Shown piece by piece: positions 15,767 to 64,000 of a stretch of 64,000 nucleotides of DNA; the stretch's first letter is position 1; the number at the start of each line of letters is the position of its first letter. A model generated the notes under the pieces. That model worked only from the letters and a program-made list of their open reading frames with translations. It was not told the DNA's origin and searched no databases. The translations under genes and the position numbers were made by a program. Where the stretch lies: the NCBI GenBank assembly GCA_964187785.1, contig OZ076409.1, positions 65,288,001 to 65,352,000 on the forward strand. Direction: 5' to 3'. Origin of the DNA: Amphiscolops sp. MND2022. Taxonomy: Eukaryota.

Positions 15767-16539
15767 TAAAACGGCAAGCTGTTATCGGTCGCTTAACACG
15801 TTAACAGAGGTGGAGGAACCTGCAGAAATGGGTGAATCGCTCGGGACAGGCGCCCATCGCCACAGATCCATTTTGCCTCCAGGGGTGAAATACGTCCCGG
15901 GGCCGCGGGTGCTTCGACGAATACTGTCCAACCGGTCCTAGTCTTTGATTGCTAATAGTAACGGGCATCTTTCTGGCTCTCTAAAGATCACCGCTTAACT
16001 AGCATATAAAAACAATGCCAAGAATAAGGTAAATTTCCAGTTCCAGGGTGACATGTGAATAAGATCTAAAATTGGGGAATAAGATCTAAACTAGCGCTAG
16101 CGCTACTGAATACAGCCAAAATCACTGAAAATACATGAAAACAGGCACGAATATGGCAAACCACACAGCTAAAAAGCTGGGGCGCAGGGGCTCCAAGCAC
16201 CAAACAAGGATCTTTAGGCGAAAAGACTCATTTTTACGGTTTCCGCTACATAGGGTAGCATAATGCTGAAAATCGATAAAACCGGTGTTAGCACCTCAAA
16301 AAGAGTCTATTTTCGGATGTTCTTGCCGTCTCTGGCTTCTGTCATGGCGGCGCGCCCGTATTTTTGCTCGTTCTTGCTCTTTGTTGTCGAAGTACCTGCC
16401 AATTTCGTGGAAACAGCGAAAAGAGCAATCACATGCTCAGTGCCACGTCACACATCGGATTAGAATTTTTGACAAAATTCCTGAACATGTCAAAGTTGCA
16501 AAATCGGTTGATATTGCTGTACCAGAGCTTGCCGTTACA
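15767..16539 (-). repeat. 5' LTR of element A
   Basis: Copy of 1006-1778 with about 2 internal substitutions seen; inner end reads TAAAAC instead of TGTAAC. Confidence 0.95.
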
Positions 16540-40572: not shown

Positions 40573-43532
40573 ACAAGGTGAACCAAAAAAACGGAACGCA
40601 CAAGAGTTTCACAGTTCAAAAACTAATATTTGTAAACAATTCGCAAACAAGCATTCACTTTTTCGGATAATGACAGATTTCGTCCCACACAGATTTCGTC
40701 TAGACATCTTTAGCAGTCACTTTGTTCGCACTTCTGACGTTTGAAAGTTCCTTGGCACTCGAATGTGTGAAAGCAATATCAAATTGAATGATTTACAAGC
40801 CCAGTTTCAGCGTTCAAAGTTGTTTCGAAATGTTTGATATCAAGTATTTGACAATTTGCGAGCTCAAAAACTTTTATTTTGGTTCACCTGATTTTTGCGG
40901 TAGTACGAGAGCCGCAAAAAAGGTACATGTATTATTTTTTTCTCAAATCTAAAACTGAATATGAATAAACAAAACGTCAAAAAATGTTTTCAAACTTCTG
41001 TGTTTGAAAAAGTGGATTTTGGATGACGATATCTTGCTTTAAGTTCAAAGTACCTGCAAAAATTGTCTTCTATAAGCACTCGAAACTTTGTTGTTCTAAA
41101 TAGCTGACAGGCAATAATAAAATGAAGCATAGAGATCTTTAGACATTGTTCACAATTGTTTACGTAATCAAGTTTGCGAATTGTTTGCGTGTACAGTTTT
41201 CTTGCGGATCACCAACCTAAGGTGAACCTAGGTGAACCAAAGTAAAACAAAACGCATGAAAACTTCCGAGCTTCGAAATGGTAATATTTGTAAACAAGAC
41301 ACTGACAATCTTTCAATCTTTCTGTGTCAAACATCCTCTTATTACGTAACGCACACTTCAACAAAGAATGCTTCGAACTTTCAGATAAAGTCTAGACGTC
41401 TTTACCAGTCATTTCGTTCACACTTTTGATGTGTGAAAGCTTCTTAGTTTCGAAGAAAAGACTGACAAGTCAAATTACTGACAAGCTGAATCACAATGTT
41501 CGGAGTTGTTTGGAAGCATTTGCTGACAAGTATTTGAAACTTTGACAGCTCAAAATTTTTCAGGCGTTCCGTTTTTTGGTTCATCTAGTACACAATGTCT
41601 GAAGATTCGTACCGTCCTCATTTGCTCATTTGAAGGTTTGATTACGTATTGAAATCTCCATTTTAAACGATTGACGGTAAATATGCAAAATGTTTAGTGC
41701 CTTGTTTACACATTTTATAATTTTGAAGATTCAAAATTATGGGCGTTTTGTTTAAATCACTCAGTAGTACTTGACAATGTTGATGGTTGTTGCTACTGTA
41801 GACAACCCAGTGTTGAAGCCATGCAACCCTTGCTATGATCATGGTAAATCTTGCTAAATCATGGTTAACCGTGGTACCCTTGTCAAGATCATGGCAAATC
41901 ATGATACATGGAACGCTTGTCAAGATCATGGCAAGATCATGGCAAGATAACCATGGGAAGACATGTAAGTTGGCGATAATTGTGCATAATTTATTCTTTT
42001 CGCAAAAATTCCTTGTCTGCAATTTCTGAATTAGCTTCGGACATAGCTTCGAACATTGTAATAACTTCGGACATAACATTTATCGATCGAAAATAGTTTT
42101 TTAATTGAAAATTATCCAAAACTTGCTCAATTTGCTGCACCTATTGACCAAGTTTTGTTACTTGAGAGCACGGCATTGTTACTACTATCATAAATTATCA
42201 TACAAATCAAACTCCGAATCAAGTTATTGCAACTTGCGGGTTTGGGATACCGGTGTGAAAACCAACTTTTCTAGCTATGATGCAAATCATGCTATTACCT
42301 TATCTATTGAGGTAACGGGTTCTAATTACTGAAGTTCCAGGATGCAATAAAAACTTCTAACGGTCTAAGCAAAAACATTCCTTTATGGTCTTGGGTAACA
42401 GTTTTCTAAACATGTCTTTTTTGGTCCGAATAAATTTTTAGATACTAGTTACAATTTGAAAATAAGAGATCTGAATTTTCCAAAAATTCCGCTAGTAATA
42501 CCATGGAACCCTGGCCAAGATCATGGTTAATCATGGTTAGCCTTTGCACGATCTTGCATGGCGATGGTATCCTTGTCAAGATCTTGGCAAGGCTACCAAG
42601 GAACTTGCCATGGATCTTGTGGCCATGGCTTCGAACACTGGGAAACAATTAAACACGGTCCGTTTTGTTCTGGAACATTTGTCAAATTTATCAAAAAGAG
42701 CAAGATGTCGAAAACTCATTTGATAACTTGAACGACAAGCTCATATCCCAAACTTGACAGCTATTTTTTCGGCTTGTTAATAAACGTTGACGAAAACGAC
42801 AGAATTGTTTTACGCGTAGCGTTTTGTAGCATATGAAAATCGGAACGCATGAAACTTTTTTTAGCTTTCAAAGTTTCAAAAATTTGTCAACAAATATTTC
42901 AAAACAAGTTAGATCATTGCTGTTCAGCTTGTCAGTCATTCAAATTGACGTCTTTTGTTTCAAGCAAATGAACATTCACACACCAAAAGTGGGAACGAAA
43001 TGGCTGATACTAGGTGAATAAAAAAACGTAACGCACAAAAATTGTTGTGCTCCCAAACTGTCAAATATTTGTCAACAAAATGTTTCAAAACCACTTTGAA
43101 CGCTGAAATTTAGCTTGTCAATCATTCAATCTGACAACATTGCTTTCACATTTCAGAAGTGCAAGCAAAGTGACTGGTAAAATGTCTGAATTTTCATTGA
43201 GGGTTCAACTCTTCTTTTGTTGAAGCTTTGATTAAGTAATGAGAGCCCCGATTTGAAAGATTGACTGGACAATTTTCTTAGCCTTGCTTAAAAATATTAC
43301 AATTTTGAAGAGCGAAAATTTTTGTGCGTTTCCTTTTTTTGGTTCACCTGGTAAAGGAGTCTAGAAATTTTCTGGAGGTTTGAACCATTCTTTGTTGGAG
43401 ATTTGTTCATGAAATGAGAGTGAGGATGGTTGACAGCCAAAGTGAATGATTGCCAGTGTCTTGTTTACAAATATTACGATTTTGAACGTGAATGTTTTGA
43501 AGCGTTCCATTCCGTTTTTTGTTTACCTAGTA
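40573..43532. mobile_element. Cluster of 3-4 Tc1/mariner-type MITEs of about 320-360 bp (about 40573-40890, 41228-41589, 43010-43352, plus fragments)
   Basis: Recurrent TIR (ct)aggtgaaccaaaaaacggaacgca / tgcgttcc.tttttggttcacct(a/g)g, often next to TA. Confidence 0.65.
41806..42642. mobile_element. Non-autonomous EnSpm/CACTA(CMC)-like element
   Basis: TIR CCCAGTGTT.GAAGCCATG, AA on both flanks, subterminal caagatcatgg repeats in inverted orientation at each end. Confidence 0.7.
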
Positions 43533-45009
43533 GTACAGTGGAATCCCAGTATTAAGTATCTTCACGGGAGGTATGTTCGAGTTACGTTATACTGAGACCT
43601 ACGCTATAAGGTGATTACATAAGTTTTGTACTGGAGAAACTAAAGAGTAAAAACGAAGTGATCGAGACTGTAACGAAGTGGAAATATTGAAAAAATGTCC
43701 CAACAGATTCAACTGAAGAAACAGTTTCTTGGTGCTTTAAAAGAGTTATTCAGGATCAGAAAATAGGTAATTTATATAGAATCAATTTTTTTGGGATCGA
43801 ATTATACAGGATTCGAAATCGATTCAATAAAAATTAAGTTTCTCGAAATTGATGGCATGACTCGGAGCTCCTCGTTCCGGAGTGCTTTGCAATCCTCCTG
43901 GTCGGCATTCGAAAAAAACCTTACCGCTGGTTAAGTAGTGGCACGTTGCTCCGCTTGGCTTCGATCCTGCGTTTAGGGCCCCATAGGTGTATCATTAAGG
44001 AAGTTTTCACTTCTTTCGATCCTAGATAAAACCAAGTCACAATACGATCCTAAATAATGTTGCAAACTTTTTGACCCTACGTAATTTGACCCTACGACTC
44101 TACACAGCAAGCCCCCTCAAAGGAATACACAATTACAGTATTTTCTTACAGCAAACTGTTTATACAACAATCCATTGCAGGGAGTGATTTAAGAGCAGTG
44201 ATAATTGTCTTAGTTTCTTCTCCGTTGAACAGATGAGAATTTGAATTGCTTTTGAGCGTCAGTCCTTCATGGGGCGAGGATACAACTATACGAAAACATA
44301 ATGCGTAAAAAATAAATTATCTTCAATGTCATCAAAAATTGCCAGACAAATGCAATAAAGCAAATAAATTAACGTCGACTCTTTTCTTTACGATATTGAT
44401 AAAGGTTGAAGATGTTTTCCGCAGAACTACTGTTACTTGTGTTGTGTTTAACACATCTTTTTCTTCAGTTAAATAATATTGAAACATTTATATAAAATTA
44501 TTTCATTGGAGTAAGAACAAAATTGTTCATTTTCCGTAAATCATTTTTCGCATTCTTTCAATTTTCAAGGCACGCTTGAAAAAATTATAGAAGTAAACAA
44601 ATTCACAACTGCGCGTTACTTGAAAGAACAAATTCCACTTCACAAAAGAGACGCTTGACACTTGTGCAAATAATTCTCTTTTATTCTCTTTGAAAAAGAC
44701 AATATGCGACGCCACTTGTGCGAGCAAATATCTCTAAGATAACAAAAGGCGCCACTTGTGCGGCCGGAGCTTCTCAATTTGAGAACAAAAGATTATTCAA
44801 GCGAGACCAAAAGTCCCCACTTGAGAGGACTAATTCCCCTGACATAAACAAAAGTTGCGTCAGCCAACTCGGCTAGCTGAGTTAAATGACTAGCTGATGC
44901 AATCTTTGCCGACTTGTACTCGGCTGTGCCTGGTCCCGAAGTCATTCCCGAGTAAAGACCGAGAATGTGACGTTAATTATTCGTGCCCAATAAAATGCAC
45001 CGATTACTG

Positions 45010-45180
45010 TGATTGGTTGCACGTGCTTTCTGATTTATATAAAAGGGCCAACTTTTCTAAAGACGATCATTCGCTTCTCACAGTTTTTCACCTCCCAAAC
45101 AAAAGCAAATCCGTCACTCTCTTCCTCTCAAAAATAAACAAATCTTCAAAACTCCACTCACTTCACTTTTCAGGTAAGTT
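45010..45180 (+). promoter_or_regulatory. Pol II promoter of element B (reverse CCAAT, TATA) and a 5' splice donor
   Basis: ATTGG at 45012, TATATAAAAG at 45036, TCATTC Inr-like about 30 nt later, CAG|GTAAGT at 45174. Confidence 0.7.
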
Positions 45181-45499
45181 ATTTTCTTTAACTTAGAGAA
45201 TAACAACAAAATTCACAAGTCAGAATTTCTTCTCTTTATTTATTCTTGTCTTCGTGACAACAAAATTGCAGTCATTCGACTGAACAAAAAGTTGACCAAC
45301 AAGGTTCTTCTATGCAATCATAGAGAATTCTATCTTGAGCTAAACGCTCCAAATAATCCAGATTCTCGATTGAGACTTATCTTATCTCTAAAGTACGCTA
45401 TCGCGTCAAGACTTAGCAAATGCTAGATAAAGTTAATTTATATCTTAACCTAAATTAAAATTAAAAACTAAAATGCATGTAATCTCTTAACTTATTTTA

Positions 45500-46245
45500 G
45501 CCGGACCTTAAGTTCGAGCTTTCTGACAATTCTGTACAAAAAAGCAACCTAGCTATACGCTGGCTGAATAAGACCTTTACATTACTTAGACTTGCAAGAC
45601 TTCTTCAATGTCTTGGTGTTAGACAATCTTGTCTCCTATTGACTTAGCCACTGCTAGTCACAACATAAGTTAAACTCTCAAAGCCCTGCACCGAACCTTA
45701 TGTTCGAGCAGCCCTTGGCAAACCTGTCGAAACACAAAACCTAGCTAAACGCTGGTTAATAAGACCTTTACTTGACTTAGACTTACAAGACTTCTTCAAA
45801 GTCTTGACGTTAGACAATCTTGTCTCTTTTTTGACTTAGCAAGCCTGCTAGTCCATTGCAATATGTTAAACTCTTAGAATACTGCAACGAACCTTATGTT
45901 CAAGCAGCTATTGGCAAACCTGTCCAAATACAAAACCTAGCTAAACGCTGGTTAATAAGACCTTTACTTGACTTAGACTTACAAGACTTCTTCAAAGTCT
46001 TGTCGTTAGACAATCTTGTCTCATTTTCGACTTAGCAAACCTGCTAGTCCATTGCATTAGGTTAAACTTTTAGAACACTGCAAAGAACCTTATGTTCAAG
46101 CAGCTATTGGCAACGCTGTCCAAACACAAAACCTAGATAAACGCTGGTTAAGCAGACTTTACTTTACCTAGACTTGCAAGACTTCCTCAAAGACTTGACG
46201 TTAGACAATCTTGTCTTTGACTTAGCTATTGCTGGTCATATGATT
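45500..46245 (+). repeat. Four tandem hairpin-rich repeats of about 196 bp inside the 5' LTR
   Basis: Anchor (a/g)acctt at about 45504, 45694, 45890, 46086. Confidence 0.9.
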
Positions 46246-46833
46246 TAAAACTTAACACTTTAAACTTTTCAGCTTTCTATAAGCTAGAACTTTTGACAAA
46301 CCTGTCATACCGTTGTCAACAGACTTAGCTAATCTCACATTCCTGTTGAGAATACTAAGTCATAAAAAGGTCTGAACAGACCAAAAATTTCAATACTTTT
46401 CGTCCTAACAAATTGTTGGATGTTATAGGACTACCAAATTCCAGTTTTTACAGTATTTAAACAACTTACCTGATTATTGCCACCTTAATAAGAGGTAGCA
46501 TGAGGTATTTATTTTTCGTGCATGTTAAACAATTCAGATATTATTGATTGGATATTTGTGTCAATTTGGATGATTATATTGTTCTGTTTGTATTATATTC
46601 TTGCGTATTGTGAAAAAACGAACATTCTGGAATATAATACTCAAACTAATTCAAATTCTTTTCATAAAATTAAACTCTTCTCTCGAAACAAAGTCCTTCC
46701 TGCGAACTCGGAAGACCTAGAGACAACTTTTGTAAAGGCTTAGGAAGGCATAGTCGCAAGCTAACTCCTAAGCAAAACTGAATAAGAATCGCAGAAAACT
46801 AATTTTCCTAAACCCACACGAACCTTTACAAAC

Positions 46834-46850
46834 TGGTGCAACCAGTGAGG
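46834..46850 (+). promoter_or_regulatory. Primer binding site of element B (tRNA identity not assigned)
   Basis: TTTACA-aac-TGGTGCAACCAGTGAGG just upstream of gag. Confidence 0.7.
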
Positions 46851-46872
46851 CATATACAAGGAAAAGAGAAGA

Positions 46873-48267
46873 ACGGCAGATAATACAGTTTCATTTCCCG
46901 ACCTCGCGTTGGACAAATTCTCAGGAAACGATCCTGAACAAGATGTTGGATCATTTCTCACAACTGTTGAGAACAAAATCAAATTCTCGATGGGTCATGA
47001 ACCCGACAATGATGACGAACGAGCAAGATACTTATTTCGCAAGAAGGCATTTTTTTCATCTCTCATAAAAGGACATGCCGCCGAATGGTACACAGACAAC
47101 ATAGAAGATGGACACGATTGGCAGCATATCAGAACACTTTTTTAAACCCGTTTTTCCGATAAAAGAGATAAATACAGATATAGAATAACTGCAGAAAACA
47201 GTTTCAGAGGAAATGAAGAAATAATAAAGAACTATTTTCACCGAGTGAAACGAGCTATCGATAGAGGGTGGCCGGATGTAGAAAATGCGGACAACGCAGC
47301 CAGAGCTGAACTGATCGCCCAAAGAAGAAAAAAGTATATTGAATTTGCAGTCAGAGGACTAACGCCAAATGAACTCAAGAACAAGGCTCACCAATACCTA
47401 ATTGAACACCCCAACGCAACTTGGGAACAATTTCAAGAACACGTCACTAATAAAGACCTTGTTTTTACTATCAGCTCGCAGTTAGCCCCGAATGCCTCAC
47501 AAAACCAAAAAACATTGATAAATGAACTACGAGAAGACATAAATGCAATGAAGAATATGCTAAAAGAACAACAAGTCATTTCCTTAGCTGTAACTAATCC
47601 TTTACCCTACGGATGCTCATCCTCCCACTGTCATGACTATCACGTCTCTGCAGTAGACGTAAATAACACGTCCCGCCAAAATTTCACACGATTTTGTATA
47701 TATTGCCGAAGGAATGGTCACACACTCCAATATTGCCGAAAAACGATCTATGATGACGAAGCCAAGAGAGCACAATCAAGAGCTAATGAAGAGAAGAAGG
47801 TCACCTTCACTAACGACTACAACAAACTGAAGGTACACAAATTTGGATCACAACAAAATTATCAGCCCTCACCAATACCGAACGTCACTAATATTCAGAG
47901 GAATAACCAACAGTCGACCCAAAACTTCAACAGAGGCAGACCTAACGAGGGAAACAATCGAAATGATAACTGGAACCGAAATAATCCTCAGCAGCCGAAC
48001 AACTTCAACAACTTCAATAGCAACAGCAATCACTTTTCAGGTAGTAGACCGACTCCTAGTAATACTAATTTGCGAAACAATACCCCCTATACTGGAAATA
48101 GGCCAAATAGCCCGTGTAACTTCAGTGCACGACCACAAAACACAAATTCTGAGTACAATAGGATTTTCCCAATCAACAATAACAGTTTCCCAAACTCCGT
48201 ACAGTTCATCGACGAAGAAGGACAGGACAGAGTTTGTACAATCTCGTTCAATCCTTTAAACTGCTAA
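46873..48267 (+). pseudogene. gag: Gag of element B with CCHC zinc knuckle and N/Q-rich tail
   Basis: LDKFSGNDPEQDVGSFL, GHAAEWY, CIYCRRNGHTLQYC; start codon appears mutated (ACG), frameshift at about 47140. Confidence 0.88.
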
Positions 48268-48346: not shown

Positions 48347-49139
48347 CCAAAAAAGATAGTGGGTTGGAAATAGAATTCATGTTAGACACAGGAGCAGCCT
48401 GCTTGATTATTAATTATAGAGCTTTTGAGGAAATTGCACAATTTGGACAACTCATCACGGTAGTCAGAAGCAAGCAACTGACTAAAACCTTTACTGGTGA
48501 AGTTATACCGATGCTCGGATCAAGAACAAGCACATTTAGTTTCGACTCGGATGGACTCCATCCCGTAGAACTGAAGTTTTGGATAAAAGAAGCGAAGACA
48601 CCCAATTTGCTGGGAATAGATTTCTGCCGTGAACTTGTTTCTAAATTCCATTTTGATTTGCCTGCAATCGAATTCAAAGAAAGTCCTAACACAATTTGCT
48701 ACGGTAACCTTTGTGCTACCAAACTTTTCCCGTACGTTTCAAAAGTCGAAACAATACGAACAGATAACCCAATTTGTATCGATACCAAAACCACCCGTCC
48801 ACACAAAAACTCTCGCGAGAACAACAGACATTTTGCACCCGGAACATCATTTACACCCCACAAAAATGAAGTCAAAACAGAGGACTTACCTTTGTGAATG
48901 TTTTATGTACAAAATCGGAATCCCACCTGCAAATTTTGATTGAAAATATTCGAAATCACTAAATAACCCTTAATAGAGGGATAATTGGTCATGCTATCAT
49001 AAATCTACAGGAAAGGGAACAACCGAAGTTCCAGATAAAGGATTGTGTCACGATCGTCAAGACATTTTTGAAGGAGAACCCAGACTACAACTATTGTTTC
49101 TTACTGCACTCAACAGTTCCTTTCGAGCACGAAGGAGAT

Positions 49140-49500
49140 CAACAAGTTTTTCTAAGCCACGGCTCCGGCGAGACCCTTCGAGCATCAAATGCAAATCTAG
49201 CTTTTTGCGTCTCAGCAGATGGAAAAATGACAACCACGTTTGCAAGAAAGTTGTGCGAACAGAAGAAGGATTCCCAGAAGTCCGTAAACCAATCGAAACC
49301 TTTCATTGGATCGGTTTTACCCTTTTGGGATAACGAAGCCCACCGCTTTTACTATGGACTAGTTGCAAAGAAAAGATGCTACGAAAAAATTAAACCCGGG
49401 GGTTTTCGTAGCTGCATCGAAAATCTGTTTGGACACTCACAGCCTAACAATATACCTGCAATTTCAATACCCAAAATTGAAGACGGCCTAGACAACCATA
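49140..49500 (+). CDS. TARG1/OARD1(Poa1p)-like macrodomain within pol
   Basis: LAFCVSADGKM...RFYYGLVAKKR...K...FRSCIENL...NNIPAISIPKIEDGLD matches the TARG1-family pattern LAHCISxD..M...IYYLITK...MPRIGCGLD. Confidence 0.8.
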
Positions 49501-52500
49501 ATAATAAACTATAATAATAAACTAAACCATAATATTAAACTATAATAATAATAATAAGGATGCTAAATCTTGTCAGCCACCCTGTACAGAACAATTTGTC
49601 GAACTTAGAACAAAAGAAGACAACGACGCATTGACAGAATACTACTTCTAATATCAGCCTGAAGAAATCAAGGCATATGTAAAAAAAATTCGATTTCCGA
49701 TATACTGACCTCCTAGATGAAGAATTGGTTGTCTTGACAGACATGCTTATTGACGCAGCGGACGTGTATTCACAACACAAATTTGACGTGGGAAAAGTAC
49801 GTCAAAAATTTCACGTAACCCGAAAGTTCGGAACTCAAAAAACAACGACCAAGCAAAGCACCCCTCCACTTGAAAGACAAACTTGAGAAACTACTTGGAC
49901 AACTCCAAGAAGCCGATATCATTAGCGAAATGGGAGACAATGACGAATTGGGTTCCCTTTTGGTCAATCCGATCATTCTAATGCCCAAACCAGACTACGT
50001 AAAGTTAGTAATCGACGCCCGCTACTTAAACTCTATAACGGATCTAACGAATTATTCGTGGCCATTAGAGCCCATACAGACGATCATGACTCGAATTAAC
50101 GGAAAATACTTCACAGTCAGCAACTTATCTTGCGCATATCACCAAGTTCCATTGAGCGACGAGACCCAAAAGCTCACTAGTTTCATCATCGGCGGAAAAC
50201 AGTATACGTATGTACGCGGTTTTTACGGACTCAGTGGACTTCCAAACTTTTTTTAGCCGTCTCATGGCTATACATTTTGAGTCCCTTATCAAACGAAAAC
50301 AAGCAATCACCTACCTTGATGACAGCCTAATGCAGGCTCAGACTAAACAAAAAATGTTCACAGTAATTCACGAGTACCATCAACTCCTAAGGAAAGCTGG
50401 ACTTGAAGCTGCACCTGAGAAGACAAACTTCTTCATCAGAAAAGTCCAATTCCTGGGTCATGTTATTTCTGAAAAAGGAATACAGCCCTTAGCAAAACGA
50501 GTACAGGATCTCAAAAACTTGAAATCACCCGAAAGTAAAAGGGAGGTGATGAAAGTACTTGGCTGTCTTGGGTTTTATAGTTGCTATATCAAAAACTTAC
50601 ATGTGGACAGTCAACCCTTCTACGATTTGATCAAAGCTACAACACCTTTCAAGTGGACGAAAGAACATGAAGAACTTTTCACCGATATAAAAAATCGAAT
50701 ATGTGAGGACACTATCCTTGCCGTTCCATCAACTGAGTACCCCTTCCACATACACGTCGATTCTTCAAATGTTGGTACCGGTTGTATTTTAGTACAACAA
50801 TTTCCAGAAGGGAAAAGGATAGTTTCTTTCAAGTCCCTTCACCGTGAATTGTGTGGTATAGTATCAGCACTTCAAACATACGAACACTACATTATTGGAT
50901 CTCCATTCCCAATATACCTCTACTGCGATCACAAACCCATCCTAAACCTTTGGGGAAGGAAAAGACAGCTCTCCCACCGCTTTTTCAAATACCAGGTGAT
51001 CATCACCAAAATCCAAAATCTCAAAATTATCTGGACTAAAGGATCCAATCTCGCATTTCCAGATATACTTAGTCGGAACATCACATTGGAGGAAACCAAA
51101 AACTTGCAAAAACTACACAAAGAAGTACCGCTAGATCTCAGTTTCTATGATGAATTTGGATCGAAAGTACATTATACAGTCAGTACATTATGACGACGGT
51201 CAGTGTGGAAGCAATGATTTTTTCCCTATCCTTTGCCGAAAGGGCAAAGATCAAAGACTACTCCATCTCAAGAATGACAGAGAGGAACATGAAGTAGAGC
51301 ACTACGAGAACTAACAAACAGTAATGGCGACTCACCAAGACATCGCCGATTGTTTCAAATTGGGAAAGTCAATCAACCAATACAAAAACCTCTGTCTTCC
51401 CTCATACAAAATACAGTGCGAACCCGAATATAGTAGAATAGACGAAATTGAAACAAATTCTAGTGATGACGAAGAGGATGTCGCCGAACTCCACCTTTCT
51501 AGCGTAGATCACGAGTTCTATCGTGATAAATCAACGGCAAAAAAAGTCCCACACGTTGACACTAAAGACCTCCTACAAAAACTGATTGTTCTAAAATCGC
51601 TGATCTAGATATCACGACTCTAGTTGCAGAGCAAATCAACGACCCCGTATTACAAGTAGTACGATCCTGGGTTAGAAACAATAACAAGCCAACCACCAAA
51701 AAACCTGAAATACAACAATCGAAGACCTTACTATCGTATTTCAACAATTTTAACCAACTTTTTCCCGATAAAGAAAGCAATCTACTCTGCTATAACGAAC
51801 CTGTTCATGGAACGGACATATTCGAAATGAAAATTTGTTTCTCCTTATCATTATTCCTGCCCCTCTTTAACATAGCTCACGCTCACACTCACAGCGGTCA
51901 CCCAGGCATATTCAAAACATTCGAAAACATCAGACAGAATTTCTTTTGGCCTGGACGATAAAAGTGGATAGTATCCCTCGTAGAAGATTGTTTACAGTGC
52001 CAGACTAATAAGTCTAAACGATACGATTTACAAGAAGCACATCTTGAACAGTGGGGTGAATTCGAAACAACCCCTTTCAAAACGATTCATATCGACCATA
52101 GAGGTCCCATCAGACCAAGCAGTAATTTGAAGACATATTGTCTAGTTGTAGTAGATGCATTTTCAACATTTCTTGGAGTCTACCCTGTTCGAGATACAGG
52201 AGCTCAGATTACAATCAATGCACTCGAAAAATGGATTAAATCCTACGACATCCCTCAAAAGATTGTCCACGATAATGGCTCAGCTTTCATCAGCCGTGAT
52301 TTTGTAAATTGGACAAAAGAATTTGGGATAACGCTGGCACCACGCACTGCATACTCGCCTTGGACGAACGGCAAAGTCGAAATCCAAAACGAACATCTCA
52401 TGACATACTGGACAAGTTTCACCAACGAGTCAGGAAACAATTGGTCGTCATTTGCGTCCAAATTTGCCTTTGCCCATAATACAAGCGTAAATTATACAAC

Positions 52501-54125
52501 GGTATGACTCCTTACGAAATTGTTTTTGGCGTTAAACCACAAATACCTATGACGCTGAGACTCGCACTTTTTCGCGACAAAAACAAACAATGCAAATCTG
52601 AGTTTTGTGCGGATCTACAACCTCACACCCATAGTGAAAATAACCTCTGAAACAATTCCCTTGATCGACTTCTTAAACCACAGTTATCTTCCGAGCTACT
52701 CACAAGAGAAAACGAATTCAAGTCAATCAACTCATCCACCCTCAAAAGAGAAATCACATCAAAGGCTCATGAGTATCGGAACCGTTTCAAACTGGGAAAA
52801 CCGCTCGAAGTCGGTCAAAAGGTTCTATTAGAAAATGACAAACCCGACCTATTCAAATACCAGAAATTGAAACATTTACGAGTTGGACCCTTCACGGTGA
52901 TAAAACAGAAAGCTATTACCACATACGAGATAAAAGAAGACGAAAACCCCGAGAACGTTAAAGTCACTCATCGAAACCAGTTACTAGAATATTTCCTCAA
53001 AGAGGAGACCTTGCCCCCATTGCTATCAAATTACGCTCCCAGAGAACAAGACGATAATTTTTACAAGCACTTGATCCAGAGTCAAATTGACAAACACAAT
53101 TCAGGACAATCTGAGCATAAACTAGATTTTATGCCACTCATCATAACCCCCCTTTCAGGGCCCAACAACAACAACACTACCAAAGGTTCTGAGTTTTCCC
53201 CCAGCACCGATTCTGGATTCCGTTCTCCGAAAACCCCACAATTTCACACCCCGATACCATCTACGTCTAACAACACCGTTCCAAGGGCACGTTCCCATCA
53301 CAGCTGTAGAACAAATCCACTTCCACAAACTGCATTGCCACTCGCTTTCTCTTCCAACACTCCTACCCAACTACCCAAGAGAACACCGGTTCTCCCGTCC
53401 GTACACCCTATCCACACAATGTCTCCCCCCGATGAAACTTCCCCAAAAACAGGAAAGTTATCTAACTTCAAGAAGAAAGTAACTACACGGTTTTCCGAAA
53501 AACCCAAAATTCCTAAATACGAACGAAGCACCCCCGGTAGCTCTCTCAGGGATATAGAACGAAAAGGCTATAAAGATTAGAAAGTAAATGATAACTCTAG
53601 CATTCACCACAACAACAAAATTTTAGCTGCGCTAAAATCCTGAACTATCTTTTTATTTCACAAAAAAATCTATGTAAATCGGACACTACACATCACTCTC
53701 TGTGTCATGAGACCCAGGGACAGAATAACTTATCGAAGAAAAACCCATGAAAGCGTGCATAATTGTGCCAACCCCTCTTTCCTGAATCTCGAACTCTTCG
53801 ATTGTCTTCAGGTCCTGAATGACATTGGACAATTTCTCAGCCTTACTGATAACTGCCATCAACGTACATGTTCGTTGACCACAACTTTTTGGATCGGGAA
53901 TTTCGATCTTTTCAAAAAAAACTTCAATTTTTTTATCACCTAGTCACAAAAAAAGTGGCTGCCCAGTGACCTCTTGGATACAACAACCACAAATTTATTA
54001 CCAGACAATTAGCAATAGCCTACGCTTACTGGTATACCCTTTTAGAACCCCTTACTCAATCAAAAGATTTTTGCCAAAAATCTTTACTTGGATCAATAAT
54101 TCCTGTATCAGAGAAAATTCGTGGC

Positions 54126-54325
54126 ATGGCGGTTCACCTTAAATGGTTGAACTGCATGGAATAGATACCACTGTGACTGTTGACGGTTTTCTTCAACAAG
54201 TCTTCCCAAGAGGCAAAACCACAAACAAAATTGTGCTATGGCGGTTCACCGTAAATGGTCGAACTGTCTGGAATAGGTAGCACTGTGACTGTTGATTTTT
54301 TAATCAACAAGCCTCCATAGAGGCG
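54126..54325 (+). repeat. Duplicated structured motif of about 90 nt (period 112 bp)
   Basis: atggcggttcacc.taaatggt.gaactg...ggaatag.ta.cactgtgactgttga...tcaacaag.ct.c..agaggc occurs twice. Confidence 0.8.
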
Positions 54326-56055
54326 ACTGCTCGAAACTTTTGGCCAACTTCCCTCATCTTTGGCTAAATGTTTGGATAATTATTATCAAAACGTTCTCTT
54401 ATTTCTCAACTTACAACGTAAAGTTGAAACAAAGTTATTACAAAAAATAATATTGAAATAAGAGACATCACAAACACAATTATTTACAAAAAATACAAAG
54501 ATTTACAAAATATCTTCCCTCTCAGCGGGGATAATAGCTGCCCCATTAGGAGGCGGATTGGGGTGCCCAGAACACAGACACACCATATATCTCCCCAACT
54601 CCGCTAGGTCCTGCAGCACTTGAAAAAACTGGCTCCGATCCAGCCGTCGAGCTATGTCTGGTCGATCTTGTGGAGCAGTCATCTCTCACCCCCGTACAAT
54701 AGCTTTGAGTTTAAAAACCCATGCGTCCTTGGTTCCGGACTGTACCGTCTCCCTCAACTAAAACAAACTGCAATCAATACACAAAACACAAAATCTCACA
54801 AACGTTTCCGTCTCTGCTCATCTTATCGCACTTAGAAACTACAGTTACAGAACTTACAGAATCGATACTAAGGACGATACTTTCCGTTTCCTTCTTACTC
54901 TTCGTGCTAAGAACTATATTAAAACCTCTTCCTTACAATGTTTCGGCATCACAAGTTAAACCACTCAACAACTTACGTGGTCGCCTAACGTCAACCTCAC
55001 TGCTCTCCAGAGTGGTTCTGGGCGTCGCAGAACTTCACCCACCGCAGTTGTCCCCGCCATCATTGGAAGCTCCTGATCGGTCACCAATGATCGCATATCA
55101 GCGAAGAGATCTGGTGCGAGATAAGCGTCATCAGCGGTAGAGAATGGCAAACGGTTCATCATGTAAAAGAAAAATCTAAATCACAACAACTAACTTGCAA
55201 TTTCAAATTTCATTTTCACCACCCCCCTTATGCCAATAAAAAATTTCCCTTCATTTTACACTCTGTTGTTCAACACTGTTTTTGTTTTCCCTCCAAGATT
55301 TACCACCATATGCTTCAACAATTTTTCTACTTCTTTTTCGGCGGTCGAGCGTGTCATATACACGATGACAAAAACTCAAAAAAACGAATATTGAAAACGA
55401 ACTTACTTGTGAATATGAAGAAATCAGACTAACATCCGAGAACGTATTCAACACAAACAAAACTTAAGCCACCATTTCAAAAACACACATGGCGTCCATA
55501 GAACTGAACCATTACAAAAGCACACTGTGAACAAACAATTTTTCAAACCACTCAAAACCACAAGGCAGCCAAAAGAACTAAACCATAACAAAAACGCATT
55601 CACTACAAGGCAAACTTCAAAACACAACTTCAAAAACACACATGGCACCCACAGTTCTCCAACAACAACAGCGCGTTTTTAATAAAAGGAACAGATGAAA
55701 ACCAGTGATGCAAGTCAAAGAAAACAGAAAAGAGGAGTCAACAACTAAAAGAAATTAACAAAAGAAGTCACTGCATGTTTTAACAAAAGCATGTAGAAAA
55801 CAAAAGAACACAAAATTTATATTACAAAGACTACAAAAAGAAGCAGATAAGTAGGAGAACAAAAAAATTAAGACAAAGCTCTGCTAAAGGAGAACCTTGT
55901 GAAAAGAACAAAAACACAATCGTATAAAATTTTGTCTCTTGAAAAGTCAAGCTCTTGCAACCGTAAAATTTGTTTAAATTTTACAAAATATGTCAAGTAG
56001 CATTTTCGAACATTGTATTTCATTTTAGTCAACTTTCAGCCAAATTCAACCAAAG

Positions 56056-56483
56056 ATGAAGCCCGTCTTATCCCAATCATCGTTATCAATAAAATCAATT
56101 TCAACTGCACATGGAATGTGATGCCCGAAGTCGAAGAGACTTCCATGATTGTACAAGAGTTTAACTGGAGCTGGCATCCAGCGGCAGATGTGGAAATTCG
56201 ATTCCACAATTACAGGTCAAAGCGAACGTACCATAAATGGTTAAAACCGGGATCATTTCTCTACATGTCTCTCACAGCAGCTCTAGTCACTTACAAAAGG
56301 GAACATGAACCGCAACTCTCTAAACAGGATATTGATGCCTTGAGCGCCATAACGGACCAAACGGACGCTACCTGCCGAAGTTCGAACTATAAAGACATGT
56401 ATATAGATATATTAGAAACCCTGATGCTCGGGCAAAAGATGGACAATTTTTTACATGTAAATAAAAGTCTTCTTCTTACATAA
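56056..56483 (+). pseudogene. Accessory ORF A (consensus about 144 aa, unknown function), unit 1
   Basis: ATG 17 nt after TTTCAG; a 7-nt deletion near the start relative to unit 2; rest open. Confidence 0.6.
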
Positions 56484-56554
56484 TTCATTTCTCTTCTCTT
56501 CGTTGTCATTTTAACTTAAACTGATAGCTCATCTGTAATCATTCATTTCAGCTT

Positions 56555-57054
56555 AGCACGGTAACGATCATAGTATCAATCTCTGCCGTGGTTGAAAAAC
56601 TTTTCAGCACGGTAACTATCAGAGTATCAATCTCTGCCGTGGGTAAATAACTTTTCAAAAAATCGATCACAGTAACGATCCTAGTATCAATCTCTGCAGT
56701 GGGTAAATAACTTTTCAAAGTCGAGCACGGTAACGATCACAGTATCAATCTCTGCCGTGGGTAAATAACTTTTCAAAGAATCAAGCACGGTAACGATTAT
56801 AGTGTCAATCTCTGCCGTGGGTAAACAAATTTTTCAAAAGCAAGCACGGTAACGATCCTAGTTATCAATCTCTGCCGTGGGTAATAAATTTGTTTCACTA
56901 AGCACGGTAACGATCTTAGTTATCAATCTCTGCCGTGGGTAAAAAAGCATTTCAGCACGGTAATGATCACAGTATCAATCTCTGCCGTGGGTAAAAAACT
57001 TTTTAGCACGGTAACGATTATAGTATCAATCTCTGCCGTGGGTAAAAAACTTTT
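56555..57054 (+). repeat. Array of 9 hairpin repeats (about 40-bp core plus 10-20-bp A/T linker), unit 1
   Basis: AGCACGGTAACGATNNNAGTATCAATCTCTGCCGTGGGTAAA x9, period 51-60 bp. Confidence 0.92.
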
Positions 57055-57073
57055 GATTATTTCAGTTCATCGT

Positions 57074-57292
57074 ATGACTTACATCAAAATTGAAAACAAA
57101 TTCTACCGGATCTATCAGACTGAGCTGGACCAAGATAGAATTTATATCTATCTAAAACACGACATCACTTCAAAAAAAGACATTGTGTTTGAATATCGAC
57201 AATCAGTCTACTGGGACTATTTTCTACACCTTATGACATTTGTGGGAGACATACCTACAGATTTGTTTAGAGGAGAAAGCAACCGCCTCTAA
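57074..57292 (+). CDS. Accessory ORF B (72 aa, unknown), unit 1
   Basis: ATG 9 nt after TTTCAG; intact in both units; MTYIKIENKFYRIYQTELDQDRIYIYLKH... Confidence 0.6.
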   Translation: MTYIKIENKFYRIYQTELDQDRIYIYLKHDITSKKDIVFEYRQSVYWDYFLHLMTFVGDIPTDLFRGESNRL

Positions 57293-57710
57293 TGAACCCA
57301 AAGTCTGTTCTCAAAAAAGACTCCCGCAAAAGAGCAAAACCGAGAATTACACAAAACTATCATTTTCCTACTATCTACTGGGACACCCTTTGGGAGAAAA
57401 AATACGAAGAACGTAGTTTCAACTGCCCATGGATAATTTTCGTTAGTGAAAACAACACAAAATTTTTGATTACCTATATTCGGTGAACTTGGACTTACGG
57501 AAGCAAGATTTGCATTCATTTCGAACGTTATGACCTGCCCAATAAAAAATACCAGAGGCAATTCTACAAAGACACTTTCCTATATGCATCACTAGCCGCT
57601 TCCGTCATTTTGTAAGAACACAAACCCGAAAGACACATCACAAAATTTTATTTAGATGTGCTGGGAGAATTAACCAGTGTTATGGACATCGAATGCGTCA
57701 CCTCCCCTAA
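57292..57710 (+). pseudogene. Accessory ORF C (consensus 138 aa, basic, Cys/His/Trp-rich), unit 1
   Basis: Starts in a TAATG overlap with ORF B; TGA at 57484 and a 2-nt insertion, both absent from unit 2. Confidence 0.55.
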
Positions 57711-59857
57711 ATAAAACCAGTTGTACACGGATCTTATCCAATTTTATGACTTGTAAGTTTCATAAACTAAAATCTTGTATTTTGTGTTGAATAAACTCTT
57801 ATAATCTCATTTCACTATCTTTTATTTCAAATTCAAAACCCATAATTTCACTTCTGTTAACAGAGTGTGGTTTCAGTGCTTATAATAACGGCTATCAACT
57901 GAGCCAGATACTGAAACTCTCAATCTATAGAATCGTGCACCAAATATAAAACTAAAACAGTGGTCACAACAAGCTACCAAACATCTATTTACTTTCGCTT
58001 TAGTTGAAGTCATTAGACAACATTTACCTCATTTCAGCCCCTGGAAGCATTTCCACGCCTGATTCAATTTTGATTCGCATCTGGTGGTCAACTAGACTCC
58101 GTCGACTCCTGGTTAGCAAGCTACCAAATTTATATCCAAATTTTGATTTGGTTGAAGACAGTAGACAAAACTTGTCCACTTTCAGTCATCCCGAAAAGCA
58201 GTCTTCATCAGTCAAATCAACCTTGATTGCAACTGGATTGTCAAATTCGACTCCACCAACTCTCGGTTAGCAAGCTACCGTTTAAATTTTCCCCTTCCTA
58301 AACTAATTTTAACATTTTGCCCTTCACAAAAAAGAAGTTTTGGCAATACCTAAGGTTCCTCCCATTAGATCCAAAATGTGCAGTGAATTCTTTATTATAC
58401 TCATTACGTGCTACACCCTCATCAATGGCCTTTCCAAACCCCAATCTGGACGACATTGCATAGAGACTCAGCAAGTCACATTATGAATGTGGAGAGATGA
58501 CTGAAAACAAATTATAGAACACAGACACACCATATATCTCCCCAACTCCGCTAAGTCGTGTAGCACTTGAAAAAACTGTCTCCGATCCAGTCGTCGAGCT
58601 ATGTCCGGTCGATCTTGTGAAGCAGTCATCTCCCACCCCCGTACAATAGCTTTGAGTTTAAAAACCCATACGTCCTTGGTTCCGGACTGTAGCGTCTCCC
58701 TCCACTAAAACAAACTGCAATCAATACACAAAACACAAACTCTCACAAACGTTTCCGTCTCTGCTTACCTTATCGCACTTAGAAACTACAGTTACAGAAC
58801 TTACAGAATCGATACTAAGGACGATATTTTCCGTTTCCTTCTTACTCTTCGTTCTAAGAACTATATTAAAACCTCTTCCTTACATTGTTTCGGCATCACA
58901 AGTTACACCACTCAACAACTTACGTGGTCGCCTAACGCCAATCTCACTGCTCTGCGGAGTGGTTCTGGGCGTAGTAGAACATCACCCACCGCAGTTGTCC
59001 CCGCCATCATTGGAAGCTCCTGATCGGTCACCAATGATCGCATATCAGCGAAGAGATCTGGTGCCAGATAAGCGTCATCAGCGGTAGAGAATGGCAAACG
59101 GTTCATCATGTAAGGGAAAAGTCTAAATCACAACAACTAACTTGCAATCTCAAATTTCTTTTTCACCACCCCCCTTATGCCAAAAAAAATTTCCCTTCAT
59201 TTTACACTCTGTTGTTCAACACTGTTTTTGTTTTCCCTCCAAGATTTACCACCATATGCTTCAACAATTTTTCTACTTCTTTTTCGGCGGTCGAGCGTGT
59301 CATATACACGATGACAAAAACTCAAGAAAAACGAATATTGAAAACGAACTTACTTGTGAATATGAAGAAATCAGACTAACATCCGAGAACGTATTCAACA
59401 CAAACAAAACTTAAGCCACCATTTCAAAAACACACATGGCGTCCATAGAACTGAACCATTACAAAAGCACACTGTGAACAAACAATTTTTCAAACCACTC
59501 AAAACCACAAGGCAGCCAAAAGAACTAAACCATAACAAAAACGCATTCACTACAAGGCAAACTTCAAAACACAACTTCAAAAACACACATGGCACCCACA
59601 GTTCTCCAACAACAACAGCGCGTTTTTAATAAAAGGAACAGATGAAAACCAGTGATGCAAGTCAAAGAAAACAGAAAAGAGGAGTCAACAACTAAAAGAA
59701 ATTAACAAAAGAAGTCACTGCATGTTTTAACAAAAGCATGTAGAAAACAAAAGAACTCAAAATTTATATTACAAAGACTACAAAAAGAAGCAAAGAAGTA
59801 TGAGAACAAAAAACTAAGACAAAGCTCTGCTAAAGGAGAACCTTGTGAAAAGAACAA

Positions 59858-60343
59858 CAAGACGAGAACGTCTAAAGTCGGCGCCATATCTAAGGCTCAA
59901 AAAGCGTAAAACACTTTTTTTGAAAAAAAATTGAAATTTTTGAAAAAAATTTTTCTTTCAAAAGAAGTCGCATAGTGCCGAAAAATGTAAAAGGGGGGAC
60001 CCTTCTTTATTTATTAACAAACATTCCGTTGCAAAATATCAAAAAACTCAAAGGGGGGACCCTTTGGGGACATTAAAAAATTTTCGAAAAAAAGTCGCAC
60101 AGTTCCAAAAAAAATCCAAAGGGGGGACCCTTTGGGCACGCCCGGTTTTGTATGTTTCCTTGAAAAAGTAAAAAATGAAAGGGGGGACCCTTTGGAGTAA
60201 AGTTTGCCTTGGGCGGACTTGGCCAGGTGCTCTGCGCAGAATTGTAAAAAGTGGACCGATCAGAGTGAGGATTGTAGTCTGAAGAAAAAAAAAGGTCACT
60301 GCTATAGTCGGACATATTTCCTTAAAAGGAAAACGCGCCGACT
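59858..60343 (-). mobile_element. Complete HINE inserted in cassette unit 2
   Basis: Absent from unit 1 (gaaaagaac|aaaaacac); minus strand TT|AGTCGGCGC...GCGCCGACT-TT-AGACG-TTCT-CGTCT-TG|TT. Confidence 0.88.
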
Positions 60344-60489
60344 AAAAACACAATAGTATAAAATTTTGTCTCTTGAAAAGTCAAGCTCTTGCAACCGTAA
60401 AATTTGTTTAAATTTTACAAACTATGTCAAGTAGCATTTTCGAACATTGTATTTCAATTTAGTCAACTTTCAGCCAAATTCAACCAAAG

Positions 60490-60923
60490 ATGAAGCCCGT
60501 CTTTGATGATATTCCAATCATCGTTATCAATAAAATCAATTTCAACTGCACTGGAATGTGATGCCCGAAGTCGAAGAGACTTCCATGATTGTACAAGAGT
60601 TTAACTGGAGCTGGCATCCAGCGGCAGTTGTGGAAATTCGATTCCACAATTACAGGTCAAAGCAAACGTACCATAAATGGTTAAAACCGGGATCATTTCT
60701 CTACATGTCTCTCACAGCAGCTCTAGTCACTTACAAAAGGAAACCTGAACCGCAAATTTCTAAACAGGACATTGATGCCTTGAGCGCCATTACGGACCAA
60801 ATGGACGCTACCTGCCGAAATTCGAACTATAAAGACATGTATATAGATATATTAGAAACCCTGAAGCTCTGGCAAGAGATGGACGATTTTTTACTTGTAA
60901 ATAAAAGTCTTCTTCTTACCTAA
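60490..60923 (+). pseudogene. Accessory ORF A, unit 2
   Basis: Intact start MKPVFDDIPII, 1-nt deletion at about 60551 where unit 1 is intact. Confidence 0.6.
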
Positions 60924-60994
60924 TTCTTTTCTCTTCTCTTTGTTGTCACTTCAACTTAAACTGATAGCTCATCTGTAATCATTCATTTCAGCTT

Positions 60995-61498
60995 AGCACG
61001 GTAACGATCATAGTATCAATCTCTGCAGTGGGTGAAAAACTTTTCAGCAAGGTAACGATCAAAGTATCAATCTCTGCCGTGGGTAAATAACTTTTCAAAA
61101 AATCGATCACGGTAACGATCCTAGTATCAATCTCTGCAGTGGGTAAATAACATGTCAAAGTCGAGCACGGTAACGATCACAGTATCAATCTCTGCCGTGG
61201 GTAAATAACTTTTCAAAGAATCAAGCACGGTAACGATCATAGTGTCAATCTCTGCCGTGGGTAAACAACTTTTCAAAAGCAAGCACGGTAACGATCCTAG
61301 TTATCAATCTCTGCCGTGGGTAAAAAAAAATTTGTTTCACTAAGCACGGTAACGATCTTAGTTATCAATCTCGGCCGTGGGTAAAAAAACTTTTCAGCAC
61401 GGTAACGATCACAGTATCAATCTCTGCCGTGGGTGAAAAAACTTTTTAGCACGGTAACGATCATAGTATCAATCTCTGCCGTGGGTAAAAATCTTTTG
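60995..61498 (+). repeat. Array of 9 hairpin repeats, unit 2
   Basis: Same units in the same order as 56555-57054. Confidence 0.92.
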
Positions 61499-61516
61499 AT
61501 TGTTTCAGTTCATCGA

Positions 61517-61735
61517 ATGACTTACATCAAAATTGAAAACGAATTCTACCGGATCTATAAGACTGAGCTGGACCAAGATAGAATTTATATCTATCTAAAA
61601 CACGACATCACTTCAAAAAAAAACATTGTTTTTGCAGATCGACAATCAGTCTACTGGGACAATTTTCTACACCTTATGACATTTGTGGGAGACATACCTA
61701 CAGATTTGTTTAGAGGAGAAAGCAACCGCCTCTAA
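61517..61735 (+). CDS. Accessory ORF B (72 aa), unit 2
   Basis: Intact copy. Confidence 0.6.
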   Translation: MTYIKIENEFYRIYKTELDQDRIYIYLKHDITSKKNIVFADRQSVYWDNFLHLMTFVGDIPTDLFRGESNRL

Positions 61736-62151
61736 TGAACCCACAGTCTGTTCTCAAAAAAGACTCCCGCAAAAGAGCAGAACCGAGAATTACACAAAAC
61801 TATCATTTTCCTACTATCTACTGGGACACCCTTTGAGAGAAGAAATACGAAGAACGTAGTTTCAACTGCCCCTGGATAATTTTCGTTAGTGAAAACAACG
61901 CAAAATTTTTGATTACCTTTATTCGGTGGACTTGGACTTACGGATGCAAGATTTGCATTCATTTCGAACGCTACGACCTGCCCAATAAAAAGTACGAGGC
62001 AAATCTACAAAGACACTTTCCTATATGCATCACTAGCCGCTTCCGTCATTTTGTAAGAACACAAACCCGAAAGACACATCACAAAATTTTATTTAGATGT
62101 GCTGGGAGAATTAACCAGTGTTATGGACATCGAATGCGTCACCTCCCCTAA
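61735..62151 (+). pseudogene. Accessory ORF C, unit 2
   Basis: 417 nt in one frame with a single TGA at about 61834 where unit 1 has TGG. Confidence 0.55.
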
Positions 62152-62978
62152 GTATAACCAGTTGTACACGGATCTTATCCAATTTTATGATTTGTAAGTT
62201 TCATAAACTAAAATCTTGTATTTTGTGTTGAATAAACTCTTATAATCTCATTTCACTATCTTTTATTTCAAATTCAAAACCCATCATTTCACTTCTGTTA
62301 ACAGAGTGTACTTTCAGTGCTTATAATAACGACTATCAACTGCGCCAGATACTGAAACTCTCAATTTATAGAATCGTGCACCAATCTTAAAACTAAAGCA
62401 GTGGTCACTGTGACTACACCCTCTTTTGGTTAGCAAGCTACCAAACATCTATTTACTTTTGCTTTAGTTGAAGTCATTAGACAACATTTACCTCATTTCA
62501 GCCCCTGGAAGCATATTCACGCCTGATTCAATTTTGATTCGCATCTGGTCGTCAACTAGACTCCGTCGACTCCTGGTTAGCAAGCTACCAAATTTATATC
62601 CAAATTTTGATTTGAATGAAGACAGTAGACAAAACTTGTCCACTTTCAGTCATCCCAAAAAGCAGTCTTCATCAATCAAATCAACCTTGATTGCAACTGG
62701 ATTGTCAAAATCGACTCCACCAACTCTCGGTTAGCAAGCTACCGTTTAAATTTTCCCCTTCCTAAACTAATTTTAACATTTTGCCCTTCACAAAAAAGAA
62801 AGTTTGGCAATACCTAAGGTTCCTCTCATTAGATCCAAATTGTGCACTGAATTCTTTTTAATACTCATTACGTGCTACACCCTCATCAATGGCCTTCCGA
62901 ACCCCAATCTGGACGACATTGCACAGAGACTCAGCAAGTCACATTATGATTGTGGAGAGATGACTGAAAACAAATTAT

Positions 62979-64000
62979 AGAACACAGACACACCATTCAT
63001 CCCCCCAACTCCGCTAGGTCCTGCAGCACTTGAAAAAACTGGCTCCGATCCAGCCGTCGAGCTATGTCCATTCGATCTTGTGGAGCAGTCATCTCTCACC
63101 ACCGTACAATAGCTTTGAGTTTAAAAACTCATACGTCCTTGGTTCCGGGCTATAACGTCTCCCTCCACTAAAACAAACTGCAATCAATACACAAAACACA
63201 AAATCTCACAAACGTTTCCCTCTCCGCTTACCTTATCGCACTTAGAAACTACAGTTACAGAACTTACAGAATCGATACTAAGGACGATACTTTCCGTTTC
63301 CTTCTTACTCTTCGTGCTAAGAACTATATTAAAACCTCTCCCTTACAATGTTTCGGCATCACAAGTTACACCACTCAACAACTTACGTGGCCGCCTAACG
63401 CCAACCTCACTGCTCTCCGGAGTGGTTCTGGGCGTCGCAGAACTTCACCCACCGCAGTTGTCCCCACCATCATTGGAAACTCCTGATCGGTCACCAATGA
63501 TCGCAAATCAGCGAAGAGATCTGGTGCCACATAAGCGTCATCAGCGGTAGAGAATGGCAAACGGTTCATCATGTAAAGGAAAAGTCTAAATCACAACAAC
63601 TAACTTGCAATCTCAAATTTCATTTTCACCACCCCCCTTATGCCAATAAAAAATTTCCCTTCATTTTTCACTCTGTTGTTCAACACTGTTTTTGTTTTCC
63701 CTCCAAGATTTACCACCATATGCTTCAAAATTTTTCTACTCCTTTTTCGGCGGTCGAGCGTGTCATATACACGATTACAAAAACTCAAGAAAAACGAATA
63801 TTGAAAACGAACTTACTTGTGAATGTGAAGAAATCAGACTAACATCCGAGAACGTATTCAACACAAACAAAACTTAAGCCACCACTTCAAAAACACACAT
63901 GGCGTCCAAAGAACTGAACCATTACAAAAGCACACTGTGAACAAACAATTTCTCAAACCACTCAAAACCACATGGCAGCCAAAAGAACTGAACCATAACA
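62979..64000 (+). repeat. Tandem cassette, unit 3 (cut by the window end)
   Basis: Colinear with the first 1 kb of units 1 and 2. Confidence 0.95.

Follow-up and report, generated by a model that had tools for sequence, protein, structure and literature searches.

A TARG1-type macrodomain with an altered ADP-ribose pocket in the Pol of a Ty3/gypsy retrotransposon family

Overview

A macrodomain of the TARG1/OARD1 type is encoded between the aspartyl protease and the reverse transcriptase of a Ty3/gypsy-like retrotransposon, here termed element B. The explanation that we lean towards is that the family of this element (family B) carries a folded pseudo-macrodomain that descends from an ancestral Pol-borne eraser of ADP-ribose. 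To judge from sequence, the domain is one that works, or worked, like TARG1, and family B itself falls outside the pattern of TARG1-like enzymes. For the sister families an eraser is a plausible reading, which fits them better than element B.

Genomic setting and layout of element B

The window (the whole 64-kb stretch of DNA that was analyzed) was AT-rich and contained two Ty3/gypsy-like elements and many repeats, which would suit a eukaryotic and probably invertebrate host; no tRNA genes were found within it. Element B, on the forward strand, is a Ty3/gypsy LTR retrotransposon that has decayed; its Pol has the Ty3/gypsy order of protease (PR), reverse transcriptase (RT), RNase H and integrase (IN), as recovered by Pfam and tblastn. 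Relative to an intact relative, it was recovered in nine tblastn pieces with eight frame changes and eight stops inside the pieces (piece ends overlap). The copy is dead, and is truncated at the end of the macrodomain.

All features of the element were located on the forward strand. A fragment of a gag-like ORF that includes a zinc-knuckle-like Cys/His motif (47146..48267) was identified by tblastn of the gag-pol fragment P0088, and had no Pfam gag match. At the gag stop, the heptamer at 48255..48261, which we take to be slippery by the heptamer rule, is a candidate −1 site into the pol frame. It is followed by the aspartyl protease (48379..48680; tblastn, with PF13650 at E 0.001 and PF13975 at E 0.0013, both below the gathering cut-off), a conserved, frameshift-broken spacer domain of ~150 aa (48680..49130; tblastn and family comparison) and the TARG1/OARD1-type macrodomain of Pol, which has an altered pocket and is without its last helix and strand (49143..49496). 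An AAT-rich low-complexity stretch with a stop (49497..49558) replaces ~68 codons, namely the macrodomain end and the acidic linker. RT and RNase H (49683..51256) and then integrase (H2C2, rve and C-terminal SH3-like) with a low-complexity tail (51581..53580) were each spread over several frames, as determined by Pfam and tblastn.

The spacer between PR and the macrodomain was 48-61% identical across families, had no match in Pfam, PDB or the atlas, and was modeled with low confidence. A dUTPase identity was considered, given the dUTPase-like domain between PR and RT of gypsy Pol (PMC6431247, partial text); the position fits, but Pfam, PDB, the atlas and the low-confidence model lent it no support.

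No LTR pair was detected for element B when 43001-46900 was compared to 53401-64000 (no match at E 0.01), and tandem repeats fill the 3' side. A ~196-nt unit is present in about four tandem copies at 45501-46226, within the 5' UTR of element B, and TATA- and CCAAT-like motifs upstream of these repeats (near 45010-45055) may mark its 5' LTR. Directly behind the element, at 54569-64000, lie at least three head-to-tail copies, 95-97% alike, of a 3.9-4.5 kb unit with internal subrepeats of 58-60 nt and 51 nt and short ORFs without Pfam match at cut-off.

Identity and fold of the macrodomain

A sequence-only reading had proposed a TARG1/OARD1-like macrodomain between protease and RT on the basis of three motifs, and the proposal held. 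All three motifs were found in a single forward-strand open frame (48963-49514), at 49203-49220, 49356-49373 and 49467-49493, with the Lys84-equivalent codon starting at 49368 and the Asp125-equivalent codon at 49491 (residue numbering follows human TARG1). This ORF sits between the aspartyl-protease and RT Pfam matches. Pfam itself assigned 0 families to the ORF, and the Pfam Macro profile performed weakly (no match for P0001, E 0.027 for P0007). A phmmer search of the ORF against PDB placed human TARG1/C6orf130 at the top (5 sequences, E about 2e-4), with the next match at E 0.37. A macrodomain profile built from 41 of 50 macrodomain matches scored the window ORF at E 4.6e-29 in a six-frame window scan, and a 14-sequence clade profile searched against PDB matched TARG1 at E 8e-26 and DarG at 0.003.

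The fold was modeled on P0007, a natural family-B member, using AlphaFold2. The model was confident over the macrodomain only (block pLDDT 81-97), and its input alignment was rich in canonical homologues, which biases it toward this fold. The best Foldseek matches of this relative's model were TARG1 (E 1e-11). VIA-align to TARG1 gave Z 21.6 and rmsd 1.9 over 146 residues, as compared to Z 20.3 for DarG, 17.2 for SCO6735, 16.6 for Poa1p and about 14 for viral macrodomains. A chance motif match was ruled out by the profile score and the fold match.

Family B and its sister families

The relative P0002 (1821 aa) was 89% identical over the query and carries PR, spacer, macrodomain, RT, RNase H and IN within a single frame; its cluster, family B, comprised 168 ORF pieces. 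Among the 15 members listed, P0002, P0009 and P0014 each encode a single-frame Pol of 1821 aa and are 99% alike, and such near-identical full-length copies suggest that family B was recently active. These three have a complete macrodomain, unlike the window copy, in which similarity ends 3 residues past the Asp and residues 373-440 of the intact relative are without counterpart. The natural 1821-aa copies bear the macrodomain in the same frame as the rest of Pol, in agreement with the original suggestion that the domain is Pol-borne.

The Pol layout of family B recurred in three sister families, S1 (P0079; cluster of 415), S2 (P0074, P0080 and others) and S3 (P0092, 1827 aa; cluster of 617). 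Cluster sizes (168, 415, 617) count ORF pieces and not elements, and further family members were singletons. The relatives of family B and its sisters are ENA records and may come from different hosts. Two pattern scans for relatives in JGI metagenome contigs returned 135 and 472 matches, none of which was confirmed. Insertion of a host gene into a single copy was ruled out by the intact family copies and sisters that share the domain at the same place. The comparison indicates that the TARG1-type domain was inherited from an ancestor shared by four or more related gypsy families.

A macrodomain tree was built from 55 rows, with partial sequences left out. Family B branched within the domains of its sister gypsy families (97/93). 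Its stem length was 0.88, as compared to 0.14-0.16 for S1 and S2; the S3-type group had a stem of 0.59. The B clade was not grouped with P0064, a TARG1-orthologue-like sequence, in a part of the tree where deep nodes are weak. The RT tree, rooted on S3, was (S3,(B,(S1,S2))), so the canonical site would be ancestral, a rooting that depends on S3 as outgroup.

Pocket residues

In TARG1-like sites, adenosine is contacted by Asp20/Leu21/Phe22, Ile44 and Pro118, the diphosphate by the GxG loop and the distal ribose by His32, Cys33, Ser35, Thr83 and Asp125, with Lys84 as nucleophile, and the enzymes are described by the pattern TKx(30,35)Px[IL]GxGxD (PMC6397177, partial text). Family B keeps Lys84 (12/12) and Asp125 (10/10), as the sequence-only reading had stated, together with Cys33 (10/10), Ser35 (9/10), Gly123 (9/10), Asp37 and Lys90. 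In the window copy, alignment of the loop-1 region (49203..49244, +) showed Cys33, Ser35 and Asp37 kept and His32 and Gly43 replaced; the loop-2 motif (49356..49373, +) has the catalytic Lys84 (codon 49368) preceded by Ala in place of Thr83; and the diphosphate loop (49467..49493, +) has Glu-Asp in place of Gly121-Cys122, with Gly123, Leu124 and Asp125 (codon 49491) kept.

These replacements run through the family. His32 is Phe in 10/10, Thr83 is Ala in 12/12, Gly121-Cys122 is Glu-Asp in 10/10, and Gly43 is Thr in 11 of 12 sequences and Lys in the other (1/12). Pro91 is absent in 12/12, and Pro118 is Ala in a subfamily (5/10). In the adenine pocket (Asp20/Leu21/Phe22), Phe is Arg relative to the sisters, at a place where alignments differ in their register against human TARG1. 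Since the sequences are close kin, counts such as 12/12 represent one evolutionary event. Post-insertion decay was ruled out as the source of the pocket changes, which are also present in intact copies. The TARG1-like pattern matched 0/10 family-B sequences versus 30/39 sequences of the three sister families; the nine sister misses were mostly one position off, as expected of decayed copies. The sisters keep the whole canonical site across macrodomain identities of 45-68%.

Human TARG1 loses both catalysis and the ability to bind ADP-ribose when mutated to G43E, I44E or G123E (PMC5928194, partial text); these published mutants go to Glu, whereas residue 43 of family B is Thr or Lys. Gly121 has 0 occurrences in the main text of PMC5928194. 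In family B, ADP-ribose should be hindered by the Glu-Asp pair of the diphosphate loop and by any side chain at position 43. The further idea that the domain of family B is a working eraser found no support, given that His32, Gly43, Thr83 and Gly121 are all replaced and that both catalytic residues would be retained by chance at family B's divergence with a probability of about 0.15.

Rates and constraint

Identity between family B and S1 was 86% in RT, 91% in RNase H, 73% in PR, 61% in the spacer, 55% in the acidic linker and 42% in the macrodomain; between S1 and S2 it was 85% in RT and 68% in the macrodomain. Relative-rate tests were conducted on protein sequences with S3 as outgroup, and their results are compatible with relaxed or positive selection on family B. 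Changes on B versus S1 numbered 33:5 in the macrodomain (p 4e-6), 4:7 in PR, 17:11 in the spacer, 8:4 in the linker, 10:19 in RT and 5:7 in RNase H. The macrodomain ratio differed from that of PR, spacer, RT and RNase H combined (36:44; Fisher p 1.8e-5; the linker was not pooled). Only the macrodomain is accelerated on the B lineage, as far as these protein comparisons go. When P0080 or P0074 served as the third sequence instead, RT also looked faster in B (26:9 and 26:7), which the RT tree explains by these S2 members being the wrong outgroup. The lineage-wide acceleration that this suggested was superseded by the test with the more distant S3.

Within family B, the macrodomain differed more than the spacer (15-21/142 versus 3/150, p 0.003-6e-5) in 3/3 pairs, which are non-independent, and the sister pairs had no such macrodomain-over-spacer excess (4/4). 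The excess within B may reflect recombination.

Expected retention was calculated analytically, from a codon model of neutral change matched to the identity that was observed. In the hydrophobic core of family B, 41/44 sites stay hydrophobic versus 31.4 expected (p 3e-4), and 14 of the 20 conserved sites outside the pocket were kept versus 8.4 expected (p 0.01). For the pocket, 7/12 sites were kept versus 4.9 expected (p 0.17), in what is a low-power test. By direct count, pocket losses were no commoner than losses at other conserved sites (7/12 versus 13/18).

Alternative explanations and preferred scheme

A wider account, which we consider somewhat unlikely, holds that animal Ty3/gypsy elements repeatedly captured TARG1-type erasers, at several places in Gag and Pol, under restriction by host ADP-ribosylation of their proteins, RNA or cDNA, and that the family-B domain is a positively selected enzyme of new specificity or a decoy. 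In another account, an amended form of the sequence-only reading, family B would encode an active eraser with a remodeled pocket, in which hydrolysis by Lys84/Asp125 persists and an arms race has shifted specificity or evaded host recognition. This account is unlikely in our judgment. Lys84, Asp125, Cys33, Ser35, Asp37, Lys90 and Gly123 are all kept, acceleration confined to the macrodomain is of a kind often seen in conflict genes, near-identical intact copies point to recent activity of the family, and SCO6735, a hydrolase of related type, is functional with an altered set of catalytic residues (PMC9967889, partial text). However, the diphosphate-loop Glu-Asp and the side chain in place of Gly43 should hinder ADP-ribose, and G43E is a dead enzyme (PMC5928194, partial text). 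The TARG1 pattern fits 0/10 family-B members, Pro118 is also gone in 5/10, and retention of pocket sites was not above neutral expectation (p 0.17).

Purifying selection on the fold of family B would also agree with a new, non-catalytic role, in which the domain, its pocket dead, would serve to bind nucleic acid or a protein of the host, as a chaperone for genomic RNA or cDNA, a tether or a sensor decoy. Pocket-dead TARG1 G43E and G123E still bind RNA (PMC5928194, partial text), and Arg86 of the RNA patch is present in 11/12 family-B sequences. This role is nonetheless distinctly unlikely, given that of the patch residues K50, R86 and R126 (bioRxiv 10.64898/2026.03.31.715305, partial text) family B keeps 86 only, with Glu at 50 and Asn at 126, and that its domain has a net charge of +2 to +3 versus +11 for the TARG1-orthologue-like P0064. 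It is very unlikely that the domain was never a counter-defence eraser in this clade and was captured as a metabolic module (clearing O-acetyl-ADP-ribose or similar) or as near-neutral cargo, so that one lineage could lose the site. Family B did spread despite its altered pocket (168 ORF pieces in the cluster), ADP-ribosylation of gypsy components was not found in the literature searched, and the second element in the window, element A, also seems to carry degenerate TARG1-like copies. Yet the whole site was kept in three sister families across macrodomain identities of 45-68%, and TARG1-like domains recur elsewhere in gypsy-like proteins, which suggests repeated selection for capture.

Under the pseudo-macrodomain explanation that we prefer, Pol would be made through a −1 frameshift at the candidate heptamer 48255-48261, and the macrodomain would thereby be packaged alongside RT and IN. 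In the sister families, the domain would strip ADP-ribose from element proteins, RNA or cDNA via Lys84/Asp125. On the B branch, the ADP-ribose pocket would have been lost as both phosphate-binding loops gained side chains and acidic residues and as His32 and Thr83, at the distal ribose, were substituted. The domain would still have been held in frame and folded by selection, probably since Pol would suffer from a module that misfolds or breaks. Family B would have gone on transposing with its pseudo-macrodomain, and the window copy would be a dead truncated member.

Comparison with known systems

Macrodomains occur in some non-LTR elements, and the Mac1 macrodomains of viruses, which offer an analogy here, have a counter-PARP role. 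Alphavirus and coronavirus Mac1 resemble the family-B domain in being a macro fold within a polyprotein (Z about 14), but belong to the MacroD class with another mechanism and are structurally farther from it than TARG1. Human TARG1/OARD1/C6orf130 (4J5Q, 4J5R, 4J5S, 2L8R) was the top match by both sequence and structure, at about 23-26% identity in structure alignments. The two have Lys84, Asp125, Cys33, Ser35 and Gly123 in common, whereas the family-B domain is embedded in Pol and has His32, Gly43, Thr83, Pro91, Gly121 and Cys122 replaced. DarG (5M31, 5M3E, 5M3I), SCO6735 (5E3B) and Poa1p (6LFR) likewise belong to the ALC1-like macro class, but share only 10-15% identity with it and are a bacterial antitoxin or stand-alone enzymes; in structural rank, DarG fell just below TARG1, and SCO6735 and Poa1p well below.

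The sequence-only reading had allowed for macrodomains in other retroelements, and a precedent exists in the macro-domain ORFs of teleost epsilon-like endogenous retroviruses (PMC4977317, partial text, citing Basta et al. 2009). As in family B, a macrodomain was captured by a reverse-transcribing element; in the teleost case, however, it forms additional ORFs in Retroviridae, whereas that of B lies inside Ty3/gypsy Pol. The AlkB m6A demethylase of orchid Ty3/gypsy elements (PMC9289625, partial text) is likewise a gypsy-captured enzyme that erases a modification, but has another fold and mark, a separate ORF and activity demonstrated in vitro. TARG1 itself removes ADP-ribose from protein and from DarT-modified thymidine in DNA (PMC8501950, partial text) and acts on RNA bases (bioRxiv 10.64898/2026.03.31.715305, partial text), and TARG1-like domains of viral genomes are often without key residues (PMC4245714, partial text). 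A search by title and abstract start, with subscription journals and Repbase reports outside its scope, turned up no report of gypsy Pol with a TARG1-type domain, and the available portions of PMC4695847, bioRxiv 10.1101/2021.11.30.470311, PMC12440569, PMC6431247 and PMC9967889 contained nothing on one.

The presence of the domain in Pol of at least four gypsy families, and its other placements, raise the prospect that ADP-ribosylation may act against invertebrate LTR retrotransposons. We infer by analogy that B or sister domains could counter host ADP-ribosylation, and together the families hint at a little-studied conflict between ADP-ribose and retrotransposons. Because the clade offers a natural matched pair, canonical sisters versus pocket-altered B, the eraser question is directly testable with purified domains.

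Other TARG1-like domains in elements

TARG1-like domains were also observed after RNase H in P0073, after a gag zinc knuckle in P0034, directly after the protease in P0071 from phylloxera (PR-macro-RT, with a fusion-glycoprotein domain of viral type in addition) and ahead of a gag domain in the mayfly gene model P0089; the P0071 and P0089 records are automatic models and may join pieces. In the macrodomain tree these four fell apart from the B clade, with weak deep support, and their different positions in gypsy proteins suggest repeated capture. The Logan sequence P0090 (1537 aa) is mostly low-complexity and has a TARG1-like domain followed by NPGP, presumably a 2A-like motif; it is possibly an RNA virus or retroelement polyprotein.

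Element A is a second, unrelated gypsy element in the window, with about 27% identity to B in RT/RNase H. Behind its integrase, in the stretch at 2894-4705 (−), it appears to terminate with one degenerate TARG1-like macrodomain or two. The macrodomain profile gave E 4.7e-6 over both of two stretches (about 3605-3877 and 2945-3373), the second of which had an hhalign probability of 80% (E 1.4e-5). The C-terminal ORF scored 0.84 to a Macro cluster in the atlas (a match below 0.9), and a single-sequence fold had a mean pLDDT of 35. Direct repeats of 771 nt (1009-1779 and 15770-16540) are 99.7% identical and probably represent the LTRs of element A (15.5 kb); their identity suggests a young insertion, yet the coding region is in several pieces.
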